From Escherichia coli (GTDB taxonomy: Bacteria; Pseudomonadota; Gammaproteobacteria; Enterobacterales; Enterobacteriaceae): DNA of 64,000 nt. Positions within the stretch are counted from its first letter, which is position 1. The number at the start of each line of letters is the position of its first letter. The stretch lies in the NCBI RefSeq assembly GCF_013122565.1, contig NZ_CP053258.1. One strand, given 5' to 3'. Position numbers: made by a program. Shown one piece after another: positions 39,301 through 42,300 of the stretch.

Positions 39301-42300
39301 TAATATGAAGAATAATTACAAAAAGGCACTAGCCGATTTACGAAACTTATTAGATAATCTGCATAAAATCATGCCTGGTGATGATGTAAAAGATTTTCAA
39401 CTTAATGATGAAACTATAAAATATATTATAGATAATGTTTTGTACAATAGAAAAAAAGATATAGCTAGTGAAATAGATACTGATAAAGTGAATTTCATGC
39501 AGAAAATCTATAATAACCTTGATTGGTATAGACATTACGATGAAAATGGGAAAATAAAAACATATCGTTCTATTAATCCAAATGGCAATAGATTTTACTT
39601 TGATTTTAATGATTTGCAATTTCTTTACTACGATCATGAGAAGAAGAATGGTCCTAAAGTGGAGGATTTTGTGAAAATGCAAAATGTTTTTTTAACGGTG
39701 AAAAACTTTAAGGCAGAAGAAAAAATAAACCAAGAGAAATATATAGAAAAACCAGCAAATGTAGCCCATGAAATTGCTTCATTCACTAACATTGAACAAT
39801 ATGTACTGGGAGTAATTAAGGATTATAATAATGATATAAGTGAAGGGTTTACTTATAAAATGAAAGATTTAGCCGGGCTTTATGACGCAAGAAATGATTG
39901 TGTCCAAAGAAAGAGTTATTTGGAAAATTATATTTTTACTGTAAATGATAATAACAAAGAAAGTCAAGCCCAAATTAATAAAATCAGAAATGAACTAAAA
40001 AAAATAGATGAAAATATTGAAAAAATAAATAATACAATCCGGAAACTTGATGGTGAAATAGAGGGGTTTAGGCTAAGCCAGCAACAAGAAAACAGACTTA
40101 ATGTTGTAATTCAAGGTATCAATCGTTGGCTAAAAGAAAATCAAAATATGGTGGAAGCTATTAAAAAGATTGTTCCAGAGGTAATAAATAAAAATATAGA
40201 AAGTATAGAGAAGATAGATAAAACGGTTCGAGTTGTCAATGATGAAACAGAGGAATTTGAGCTAGAGTATGAACAAGATGGAGTTAATTATGTAATTCAA
40301 ATATAGAAGACATAGAAAAAATGCACCGATTTCTTAATGATGAAACAGCGGAGTTTTATCTAGATATCAACAAGAATAGGGAGTTAATGATGTAATTCAA
40401 GGTATCAGTCGTTCCTATAACAATGAGGTTATACGAAAAGACGCTTACGCATCAGTAATCTGGTGCACTTTAATTAAACCAGTGTCGCTGATGTGTAAGC
40501 GTTGACGTTGGGAGACGATTATATTGTTATAGCACTGCTACGCCCTTTCCAGACGGCGTATAAGAGTGCAACATGTTGAGTTTTCCGAGCGAATGGTGCA
40601 TTTTACTAACCGAGCCATTTGAATCAACCAACGCAATAAAAAAGACTGGAATAATAAGCCTGTATTTATTATTCATCGCAATCGCACTCTACGGTTTTAT
40701 CCTGCAGAAATGAGACTACTTCCAGCGGTTGTGGATTATCCCTGGGCGATAGTCATAGTCTGGTGTCAGGATTCACAAATGACCTGTTACCTGACATGGA
40801 TATAAACACAACATAGAGTGCGGTAGTTAATCTGAATCATCTATTTTTCGGCTACACAGCACAAAACAACATTATTGATTCTTTATAAGAGAGAATCTCT
40901 CCATCATTTTTATATAAATCATTATTAAGAAAATCCAGAAGCTCTTGCCTTACACTATAAATATTGACTTTTTGGTCAACCAACGACAGTAATATATCCT
41001 TGATACCTTTTAATTTCATATTTCTATCAGATATTGTATTAAAAGTGAAGATGATATTACGTTTATTACAACTGGAGAACCAATATTTTAGAGTATTATT
41101 CGTCCACTTTGTCGGTGTCTTAATTAGTTGCGCTGTTGTTGTTTTTACATTATTAAATGTAGAACCGCTAAAATTTGTCCCGACGCATGAAATAAAATTC
41201 ATTTCTGAATTGTCAAAATTGCAATTCTTTATCTCACACATATCCAGATTAACATCATGAAATGTCGAACATTTCATGTTGGCATGTGAAAATAAACATG
41301 CAATAAACGTTATATATTGCAACCTGGAATGACAAAAAGATTTATTTTTAAAATCAAAACAACAGGTTTTTTTTATTTTGAAATTGTTATTATATCTGCA
41401 ATGTAAAGAAATCATGTTTTTTATTAACTGATAACACCATTGTGATGATTCTGGTAATTCATAGGGATGTAAATGGATGTTTTCATCGAATATAACCTGT
41501 GAGTTATGGTTGTTTATTGAAGATATATAGAAGCTATCATTTGTTAAAGCTATGGTTGTGCTAAAATTATAGTGGTGATCAGCGCTCATGAAATCAAATG
41601 TAACAATGTCGTTGTTTCCTTTCTTTTCTTTGTGATATGCTTTTAAAAAAGAAATATTTTCGATCTGTTCATCAGTTAATGTAAATGGCATTTCGTCATC
41701 AAAGAAAGCGTAATCGGCATTTGGGACTGGAATACTCTCAATTGAGCATAGTTTTAATAAAAAAACATGAAAACAATGAAACATGTTTTTATGCATAAGA
41801 GAACTTAATCTCTGTTGTATCTTCTGTAGTTGTCCTTTAGGAAGTAAATGCTGTAAATTTGAAAATGAACCATCTAAAACATATTTATATGTAAAAAGGT
41901 CCTCTCTTGGACCATTTATTAAAAAATCGTCAGACAATTTAGAAAAACGATTGAGATGACATAAATATTCCATTTGCTCCATGTCTATATAGTTATGGAG
42001 AACTGCGTGGTTTGGTGGTGTGCCAATAAGATTATCCATAAATCACCTTGATAAAATTTAATAAAATCTCTTTATTTTAACCTCGACAATAAAAGCGGCT
42101 ATAAAAAAACGCTCATTTTCTGATGCTGCGGTTAACCTGTGGAATGTGCCGTTAACCCCCTAAAAATCGCAAATCCAGGGTGAACACCCTGGGTTAAAAT
42201 GGAAATAATGAGCTATTTTTTACAGTATTCACCGGTAATATAAGTAACACTTGTTGCTAACCTAACTAGCAGTACGGTTAATTAACAACATAGAAGTTAT

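Follow-up and report, generated by a model that had tools for sequence, protein, structure and literature searches.

A 46-residue open reading frame with membrane-peptide features lies antisense to a cbrC relic in an Escherichia coli effector island

Altogether, the 46-aa open reading frame (ORF) in the spacer between the EspY5-like and EspX3-like genes of Escherichia coli contig NZ_CP053258.1 is not a gene, and the spacer in which it lies is an ordinary evolutionary scar. The ORF is very probably a by-product of this pseudogene scar that is under no selection and from which most likely no protein is expressed. In our model, the spacer would be a non-coding scar left by the assembly of the effector island at phoU-yieH; read along the minus strand, a cbrC fragment would be followed by a yieH with an internal deletion (residues 106-128 and, after them, the C-terminus) and by a copy of the hairpin of the resident yieH. 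Positions refer to the window, i.e. the whole 64,000-nt stretch of DNA analysed. We take its three effector genes, EspY5-, EspX3- and EspY4-like, to be the "Z-locus" effector island, Z5211-Z5214 of O157:H7, at the phoU-yieH locus.

Decayed cbrC and yieH sequence in the spacer

The spacer, 545 nt long and flanked by two convergent effector genes, is a patchwork of dead minus-strand gene pieces (Table 1). The initial annotation had described this region as richer in GC than the island genes and as a possible relic of older resident sequence. Both points are borne out: GC is 0.41 vs 0.30 (0.413 for 40404-40851; the three island genes have 0.295-0.316 and yieH 0.517), and the resident sequence consists of decayed yieH, a core gene, and decayed cbrC (yieJ), which occupies the locus in island-free strains.

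Table 1 Features of the spacer and its surroundings, in window coordinates
Feature	Position	Strand	Remarks
EspY5-like type III effector gene	37667-40306	+	Sakai ECs4657 orthologue; left neighbour, ends towards spacer
Degenerate repeat copy	40299-40413	+	Third ~100-nt unit from the EspY5-like 3' end, now beyond the stop codon
Copy of hairpin and last yieH codons	40435-40531		Matches window 44800-44897, downstream of espY4 and resident yieH
Candidate yieH C-terminus relic	40525-40575	-	Residues ~204-220; weak match, tblastn 41-50% identity, E 0.12
49-aa ORF	40527-40676	-	Carries the yieH relic; longer than the plus-strand 46-aa ORF
yieH middle relic	40560-40628	-	Residues 106-128; frame differs from that of the cbrC relic
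46-aa ORF	40573-40713	+	ATG at 40573, TGA ending 40713; very probably a chance ORF
cbrC (yieJ) relic	40629-40739	-	N-terminal region, residues 14-49; two in-frame stop codons
Rest of spacer	40740-40851		No significant match outside island-bearing genomes
EspX3-like pentapeptide-repeat gene	40852-42039	-	Sakai ECs4654 orthologue; right neighbour, ends towards spacer
EspY4-like effector gene	42322-44748	+	Paralogue of the EspY5-like gene
Resident yieH	44885-45550	-	Intact; source-type sequence of the yieH relic

In a blastn survey of 5426 genomes (28 Gb), the cbrC relic matches cbrC of ~3500 island-free E. coli genomes with 74.8% identity over 111 nt (E 3e-10), and a local tblastn search aligns it to CbrC with 61% amino acid identity (E 9e-13). 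PF03691/UPF0167 is its sole Pfam match (profile positions 7-41, E 0.011 to 0.0017) and remains under the gathering score, as a stretch of 36 residues would be expected to. With 36 of 195 codons left and two in-frame stops in the window, the relic has lost its coding capacity; the other haplotypes likewise carry one or two in-frame stops, except L002, in which a 1-bp deletion shifts the frame. The differences in the cbrC block have an excess of GC-to-AT changes (17 vs 8). The yieH middle relic matches yieH with 86% identity over 58 nt by blastn and the window's own yieH (45172-45211) with 82.5% over 40 nt; by tblastn it has 65% amino acid identity (E 1e-7), and the YieH equivalog model NF007854 of NCBIfam matches it at positions 104-129 (E 9e-6). 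At the sequence level, the cbrC and yieH homologies are thus established by four independent routes (blastn, local tblastn, NCBIfam and Pfam). The two relics meet at ~40628/40629 in a novel joint of yieH residue 106 with cbrC residue 49, which is common to all 15 full-length spacers and is deleted in L017.

On the left of this joint, the candidate relic of the yieH C-terminus is placed consistently with the neighbouring match to the final codons of yieH, where 40435-40531 and 44800-44897 share 78.6% identity over 98 nt (E 6e-17). On its right, the part of the spacer beyond the cbrC relic may represent the 5' end of cbrC with its upstream region, no longer recognisable through decay. We attribute to chance a gapped tblastn match to cbrB in 40790-40879 (E 0.003); it lies partly over the 3' end of the EspX3-like gene, in a different frame, and is unsupported at the nucleotide level.

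Origin and variation of the 46-aa frame

The ORF, which encodes MLSFPSEWCILLTEPFESTNAIKKTGIISLYLLFIAIALYGFILQK (46 aa), exists exactly as given in the initial annotation, including its hydrophobic C-terminal helix: at a mean Kyte-Doolittle hydropathy of 2.45, the C-terminal 19-mer GIISLYLLFIAIALYGFIL falls within the transmembrane range. Its length is no more than expected by chance, complete ORFs of at least 46 aa being found in 1383 of 2000 (69%) shuffles of the spacer. A hydrophobic stretch like that of the ORF is rarer by chance than the length and occurs in only 7 of the 2000 shuffles. The antisense register of the ORF on cbrC accounts in full for this hydrophobicity. From residue 20 to residue 46, the ORF reads the cbrC relic in antisense and in register, with codons that are exact reverse complements, and the acidic, A-centred codons of CbrC QDKTVECDC become T-centred hydrophobic codons when read in antisense. 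Intact cbrC, antisense in register, already reads LLFTAIALYGFIL; in an island-free strain, the antisense reading is NAIKGTRVIN*RLLFTAIALYGFILFKC, where the 46-aa ORF has NAIKKTGIISLYLLFIAIALYGFILQK. The antisense frame of intact cbrC contains one stop, exactly where the relic is open. Decay of the relic removed this sole antisense stop, and since the stop is present in intact cbrC, the frame opened after the cbrC fragment had formed. According to the initial annotation itself, the ORF would be refuted as a gene if the region aligned, in a different frame, with part of a known gene, and the cbrC fragment, opposite the ORF and in codon register with it, is such an alignment.

In these respects, the ORF is similar to spurious "shadow" ORFs, which are likewise open opposite a present or former coding frame and in codon register with it, have a composition set by the sense strand and are called "hypothetical protein" by some gene callers; it is unlike the usual examples in that the sense gene, here the cbrC relic, is itself dead and that its decay removed the lone antisense stop. 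Of 60 genomes sampled across the ranking, 58 have no RefSeq annotation under the ORF; the exceptions are a minus-strand partial pseudogene (PGAP) over the yieH relic in TC_EC10 and, in RMDEC465, a partial effector pseudogene located at a deletion. Among GenBank "hypothetical protein" entries, the 46-aa peptide is present on 376 contigs and the product of the opposite-strand ORF on over 1000; gene-caller noise is the source suggested by these entries for both overlapping ORFs. The case carries little biological weight. It is a clean example of a membrane-peptide look-alike cast in antisense by an acidic stretch of protein, and it illustrates why such ORFs recur in databases as "hypothetical protein".

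The initial annotation had likened the ORF to small membrane peptides or type I toxins, and a real single-pass membrane protein or type I toxin, with an antisense RNA encoded in this spacer as its repressor, would be in line with the hydropathy of the C-terminal 19-mer, with a size typical of such peptides and with the label in some GenBank records. With fewer than 60 aa and a predicted transmembrane helix, the product of the ORF is a small hydrophobic peptide as type I toxins are, and it shares the length and the single hydrophobic helix with Hok, Ldr, Ibs, TisB, ShoB and Zor. A single minus-strand promoter-like site at 40627-40600, weak and at chance frequency, could in principle yield the antisense transcript. 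Nevertheless, we consider a toxin or membrane protein extremely improbable. Unlike these toxins, the ORF has no sequence relation to them, no conservation, no antitoxin RNA family and no translation signals; it is present, as is the spacer, in a single copy in each genome that has it, and its helix is an antisense artefact. The peptide matches nothing in Pfam and NCBIfam at E up to 1, and an Rfam scan of 38000-43000 at E up to 1 returned only tsr26, at chance level (E 0.63) and away from the ORF. The observation in the initial annotation that there is no obvious Shine-Dalgarno sequence holds: over the 20 nt preceding 40573, pairing with the anti-SD sequence reaches at best -2.4 kcal/mol, which 53% of random 20-mers from the window match, i.e. 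random expectation. No plus-strand sigma-70-like site was found upstream of the ORF within the scanned interval 40200-41000.

The pattern of variation also argues against a toxin. Compared across 16 other spacers, the ORF is intact in only 7 and broken or altered in 9, by nonsense mutation at codon 18 in five (three haplotypes), a frameshift in one, a deletion in one and stop loss in two; the stop-loss form has 59 aa and is that of two O157:H7 genomes. Conservation of the ORF among strains, the absence of which the initial annotation had listed together with that of a ribosome footprint as refuting a gene, is lacking. Variable sites inside the ORF are distributed 9/9/8 over the three codon positions, i.e. 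without codon-position bias, and pi is 0.055 inside the ORF and 0.051-0.092 in the rest of the spacer; in the spacers compared, substitutions in the ORF have no coding pattern.

The same data bear on whether the ORF might be a young, lineage-restricted proto-gene, with an antisense frame opened by cbrC decay, expression by read-through from the EspY5 gene and no detectable selection yet. The position of the antisense stop of intact cbrC, exactly at the open position of the relic, would fit such an origin, as would the predominance of the 46-aa form among the alleles: ~60% of ~1090 spacer-bearing genomes carry it, either identical or differing by one or two substitutions, examples being AF39 and a phylogroup F ST648 strain. 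This frequency, however, says little about selection because the haplotypes are at least 97% identical and the form is common through shared ancestry. Moreover, a strong hairpin (-36 kcal/mol) separates the EspY5-like stop codon from the ORF, a Shine-Dalgarno sequence is lacking, and the ORF has been lost repeatedly in other lineages. It also has no counterpart in the Sakai O157:H7 list of 465 intergenic ORFs supported by ribosome profiling, which has no entry within 4.688-4.692 Mb (PMC5597208); this list was obtained under three laboratory conditions, which may leave an island silenced by H-NS unexpressed, and from a strain that has the 59-aa form. The locus tags ECs4652-4657 do not occur in the supplements of that study, and coordinates were searched instead. 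We regard a proto-gene as very unlikely, and the narrower proposal, that loss of the antisense stop in the cbrC fragment made a translatable 46-aa membrane peptide in one E. coli lineage group, as slightly less probable still. If true, it would represent a datable case of an ORF born de novo on the antisense strand of a virulence-island pseudogene.

The hairpin beyond the EspY5-like gene

The hairpin is a stem-loop at 40440-40503, between the EspY5-like stop codon and the 46-aa ORF. The two copies in the window fold strongly (-35.9 and -29.8 kcal/mol; z -5.4 and -4.1), and the hairpin is kept in 16 of 16 sequences, across which 94% of stem cells are paired, and in both paralogous copies. The resident hairpin region (44700-44900) has no homology to the cbrB-yieH intergenic region of island-free strains, indicating that the hairpin belongs to the island.

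Compatible with a scar origin of the spacer, the hairpin could be its one functional part and the remainder inert, with a proposed role in ending transcription or in stabilising RNA at its 3' end, both for the EspY5-like gene and, in the minus-strand direction, for transcripts from the EspX3 side. In agreement with such a role, all but two changed positions in the stem retain a standard pair while the loop and the flanks diverge, and CUUUUCG follows the hairpin on the minus strand. On the other hand, the plus strand has no U-run after the hairpin, the 16 sequences contain no compensatory double changes in the stem and hence no proof by covariation, and palindromes may persist without function. 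We hold a functional hairpin to be a tentative possibility, somewhat short of an even chance.

History of the island locus

Two units of the island are colinear throughout: on the left, upstream region, EspY5 gene, hairpin and yieH fragment; on the right, upstream region, EspY4 gene, hairpin and yieH. Six colinear blocks join 37300-40860 to 41900-45700, both in the window and in strain AF39, and homology runs unbroken through the hairpin into the last yieH codons. From this colinearity, we infer that the scar is most likely where an old segmental duplication, or else an unequal recombination of two island haplotypes, left its junction, the event having extended from within cbrC to within yieH. 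On the minus strand, the spacer has cbrC and then yieH, the reverse of the resident order yieH, cbrB, cbrC, and a junction of the duplication type is needed to explain fragments in this order.

Two colinear copies and a novel joint, as expected for a duplication junction, are both present; the similar divergence throughout the two copies that is also expected is not. The relic blocks have 75-83% nucleotide identity, the EspY5-like and EspY4-like proteins have 35% amino acid identity over 630 aa and do not align in their C-terminal parts, and this EspY divergence exceeds what the identity of the relic blocks predicts for one event of a single age. The uneven divergence suggests that the parts differ in age, that the effectors have evolved fast or that diverged haplotypes have recombined. 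For a possible relic of a first EspX3 copy upstream of the EspY5-like gene, the matches are weak (E 0.01-0.02) and conflict with a 25-nt intergenic match at the same place. Searches with the EspX3-like protein against one genome per species (GTDB) revealed no island or pre-duplication state in other species, the sole match (94% identity) being to a 4.4-kb "Collinsella" MAG contig that is evidently E. coli contamination.

Together, the relics and the duplicated hairpin suggest that the EspY5-EspX3-EspY4 island was built partly by a duplication-type event, with an EspY gene already beside yieH. This event appears to be older than the split of all island-bearing E. coli lineages examined.

The bgl/Z-locus site adjoining pst-phoU is treated by Sankar et al. 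2009 (PMC2646131), in the main text of which the words "remnant" and "duplication" are absent; by that account, E. albertii has phoU, yieJ and yieH in this region. The spacer fragments resemble gene remnants at the island junctions of this locus in that they lie at the same chromosomal locus, derive from the same genes that occupy it in island-free strains and likewise have stops, frame breaks, intermediate GC and a GC-to-AT excess; unlike such remnants, they sit in the middle of the island and not at its edge. A remnant of the CbrC C-terminus (residues 180-194) is present at the left island boundary in strain 19KM1831.

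Gene fragments in the spacer

The 545-nt spacer that holds the 46-codon ORF, lying where the EspY5-like and EspX3-like genes converge with their 3' ends, is a gene remnant containing fragments of cbrC and yieH. A sensitive blastn search with 40400-40855 as the query against all 5426 complete E. coli genomes unexpectedly matched, besides ~1090 genomes with the island, 40629-40739 to the interior of cbrC in ~3500 island-free genomes (74.8%, E 3e-10) and 40565-40622 to the interior of yieH of other genomes (86%), both on the minus strand. By local translated search, minus-strand 40737-40630 corresponds to CbrC residues 14-49 (61% identity, two stops), and minus-strand 40628-40560, in a frame different from that of the cbrC relic, corresponds to YieH residues 106-128, with the relic VDSNGSVSKMHHSLGKLNMLHSY aligning to VVSNGPINKMQHSLGKLKMLHYF of YieH. 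The opposite strand of the spacer holds a 49-codon ORF whose sole profile match is the YieH equivalog NF007854 (positions 104-129, E 9e-6), while the sole match of the cbrC relic is PF03691/UPF0167 (positions 7-41, E 0.011), which scores below gathering because the relic has just 36 residues; the less decayed ETEC6335 version reaches E 0.0017 with the same family, also below gathering. The spacer further contains a copy of 44800-44897, which comprises the last codons of resident yieH and the long hairpin that lies 3' of both yieH and espY4. Alignment to a known gene fragment in another frame, an outcome specified beforehand as refuting the small-peptide reading, is thus what the cbrC and yieH matches on the minus strand provide, and they bear out the aside in the initial annotation that the spacer might be a relic of core sequence. 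The higher GC content on which that aside drew is also real: it is 0.413 for 40404-40851, whereas the three island genes have values of 0.295, 0.296 and 0.316, and yieH has 0.517.

Features of the spacer and its surroundings
Feature	Position	Strand	Remarks
Chaperone-usher fimbrial operon	31370-37309	+	between phoU and the effector island
25-nt stretch upstream of both EspY genes	37551-37575 and 42207-42231		96% identity
espY5 match (Sakai ECs4657)	37667-40306	+	879-aa ORF, low GC
EspY5-like 3' repeat, units one and two	40012-40127, 40201-40300		~100 nt, diverged
EspY5-like 3' repeat, third unit	40299-40413		degenerate, past the stop codon
Hairpin copy and last yieH codons	40435-40531		78.6% to 44800-44897, E 6e-17
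64-nt hairpin	40440-40503		-35.9 kcal/mol, z -5.4
yieH relic	40560-40628	-
46-codon ORF	40573-40713	+	ATG 40573, TGA to 40713
cbrC relic	40629-40739	-
Only spacer stretch without assigned origin	40740-40851
espX3 match (Sakai ECs4654)	40852-42039	-	395 aa, low GC
espY4 match (Sakai ECs4653)	42322-44748	+	808 aa, low GC
Long hairpin	44805-44869		between convergent espY4 and yieH
Resident yieH	44885-45550	-	intact

The ORF as an antisense shadow of cbrC

The ORF exists as first described, with the product MLSFPSEWCILLTEPFESTNAIKKTGIISLYLLFIAIALYGFILQK, a strongly hydrophobic final 20 residues (top 19-mer mean Kyte-Doolittle 2.45) and no Shine-Dalgarno sequence, the top upstream anti-SD duplex (-2.4 kcal/mol) being equalled by 53% of random 20-mers from the window. 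A plus-strand scan of 40200-41000 found no sigma-70-like site upstream of it. Its length is unremarkable, since 69% of shuffles of the spacer yield a full ORF that is as long or longer (46 codons and up). A hydrophobic run of equal strength is rare (7 of 2000 spacer shuffles) and therefore needs an explanation, which we found in the antisense register on cbrC. From codon 20 (40630) onward, the codon boundaries of the ORF are those of the opposite-strand cbrC relic, so that each ORF codon reverse-complements one codon of the relic. In the relevant CbrC segment, many codons (those for Q, D, K and E) have a central A; their complements have a central T and thus encode L, I, F and V. Of the 20 codons that specify ORF residues 26-45, 12 have this central T. 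The "helix" pre-exists as a shadow of the functional gene: the intact cbrC from O103:H2 12009, an island-free strain, when translated antisense in this register reads ...NAIKGTRVIN*RLLFTAIALYGFILFKC..., and the matching stretch of the ORF reads ...NAIKKTGIISLYLLFIAIALYGFILQK*. The relic has lost the sole antisense stop and gained a few more hydrophobic residues via GC-to-AT decay; differences in the cbrC block are 17 GC-to-AT versus 8 AT-to-GC. The ORF is one of the antisense shadow ORFs, which are a well-known class.

The ORF is not conserved. Among 16 other spacers, picked across the identity range, the 46-aa frame is identical or carries one or two substitutions in seven, all from haplotypes that share at least 97% identity with the window. 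Five spacers from three haplotypes (ETEC6335, W619, XJ34, TUM14759, 6EVA) have a nonsense mutation at codon 18, a 1-bp deletion in strain 19KM1831 shifts the frame to leave 27 aa, a larger deletion in RMDEC465 takes the ORF start, and loss of the stop in O157:H7 SS17 and Sakai gives 59 aa with a different tail. In an evenly spaced sample drawn from the 1093 matching genomes, the rough shares are ~28% for the O157-type allele and ~8% for nonsense-type alleles. Neither nucleotide diversity (pi 0.055 with 18% of sites variable, compared with 0.051-0.092 in other spacer parts) nor the distribution of the 26 variable ORF sites over codon positions 1, 2 and 3 (9, 9 and 8) indicates that purifying selection acts on the frame. 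In RMDEC465 (NZ_CM177019.1, 2240-3142), the 3' part of the EspY5-like gene has been deleted together with the spacer's left half, and with it the hairpin, the yieH relic and the start of the ORF; loss of the region is therefore tolerated.

RefSeq has no annotation under the ORF in 58 of 60 sampled genomes, the exceptions being a minus-strand "incomplete" pseudogene over the yieH relic in TC_EC10 and a partial effector pseudogene at the RMDEC465 deletion. GenBank submitters list the exact 46-aa peptide on 376 contigs and the 59-aa form on 602, each as a "hypothetical protein", and the overlapping opposite-strand 49-aa ORF on >1000 contigs; these listings look like gene-caller noise. Pfam and NCBIfam returned nothing for the 46-aa peptide, and Rfam nothing relevant over 38000-43000. 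Ribosome profiling of Sakai listed 465 intergenic ORFs (30 aa or longer) as translated (PMC5597208); none lies in 4.688-4.692 Mb, where the Sakai ORF is at 4690585-4690406, although the profiling covered three laboratory conditions only and the island is probably H-NS-silenced. Thus the initial proposal of a small membrane peptide or type I toxin, which the ORF matches by size and hydrophobicity only, fails on conservation, family relation and expression signals. The finding is ordinary, and the sole reading with some novelty, a lineage-restricted proto-gene that arose antisense to a pseudogene, is in our view very improbable.

Origin of the scar within the phoU-yieH island

The flanks of the island (pstC, pstA, pstB and phoU on the left; yieH, adeP, yieF and yieE on the right) identify the E. 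coli phoU-yieH locus, where island-free strains carry, in window orientation, yieK(+), cbrC/yieJ(-), cbrB/yieI(-), yieH(-) and adeP(+). Sankar et al. 2009 (PMC2646131) presented this effector island, the "Z-locus" (Z5211-Z5214), as an alternative to the bgl-yieJI island. The spacer is carried by 1089 of the 5426 complete genomes, in every case as a single chromosomal copy. In strain 19KM1831 (NZ_CP151026.1, 1-10440), in contrast to the 2009 description, the bgl-side genes bglH, yieL and yieK occur together with the full effector island, and between them, next to yieK on the island's left edge, lies a remnant of the cbrC C-terminus (residues 180-194).

The relics follow the minus-strand order cbrC, yieH, hairpin, versus yieH, cbrB, cbrC in the resident arrangement. 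Because the order has changed while strands have not, inversion is ruled out and a duplication-type junction can produce the relic; we infer that the scar arose at such a junction. In support of this, a left unit (37300-40860) is colinear with a right unit (41900-45700) over six blocks, here and in AF39: the 25-nt upstream stretch, three blocks in the N-terminal coding part of the EspY genes (71-82%), the hairpin (79%) and the yieH fragment (82.5%). The 25-nt stretch, with 96% identity compared with ~71-82% in the best blocks of the EspY genes themselves, is a candidate for a promoter or regulator-binding site common to both. Nothing between cbrB and yieH in island-free strains corresponds to the hairpin region, suggesting that the event followed placement of an EspY gene and hairpin beside yieH. 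In the simplest scheme, an ancestor with cbrC / espX3 / espY / hairpin / yieH would have duplicated everything between codon 49 of cbrC and codon 106 of yieH, and the left espX3 copy and most of the left cbrC would then have been lost. The order phoU, yieJ, yieH has been reported for E. albertii (PMC2646131). The joint is identical in all 15 full-length spacers and is thus older than the split of the island-bearing lineages. However, the two EspY proteins are only 35% identical over 630 residues, with unalignable C-terminal parts, and this divergence, exceeding that of the relics, counts against one simple event; the discrepancy would be explained if the effectors evolved fast, or if island haplotypes that had diverged beforehand recombined unequally.

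Hairpins and neighboring features

The paralog of the 64-nt hairpin folds at -29.8 kcal/mol. Across 16 sequences of both copies, 94% of stem cells are paired, 16 of 24 pairs are invariant and six others vary on one side with pairing kept; compensatory double changes are absent from these sequences. It is plausible that the 64-nt hairpin keeps a terminator-like role for the EspY5-like gene. The long hairpin is missing from island-free strains and is therefore part of the island; it could act as a bidirectional terminator.

The fimbrial operon, comprising three DUF1120 subunit genes, a PapD-type chaperone, an 807-aa usher and a 192-aa ORF without Pfam match, has no megablast counterpart in any of the 5426 complete genomes, matches being limited to the phoU edge and ~350 nt upstream of the EspY5-like gene. 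Among these genomes, a set that does not include the window strain, full-length identity of the core flank yieH-adeP-yieF-yieE (44800-48500) is at most 98.3%, and only 90-95% to about half of all genomes; the highest for the spacer is 97.6%. The window's DNA may come from an unusual E. coli lineage or cryptic clade. A 4.4-kb contig (JAIJJM010000244.1) of a metagenome-assembled genome labeled Collinsella sp. encodes an EspX3-like protein of 94% identity and bears the spacer with the 46-aa ORF; almost certainly, this is E. coli sequence that contaminates the bin. Finally, the EspY5-like ORF has 879 aa here, counted from a TTG that may differ from the real start codon, versus 794-831 aa at full length in five other strains, and the effector C-terminus thus differs in length among strains.
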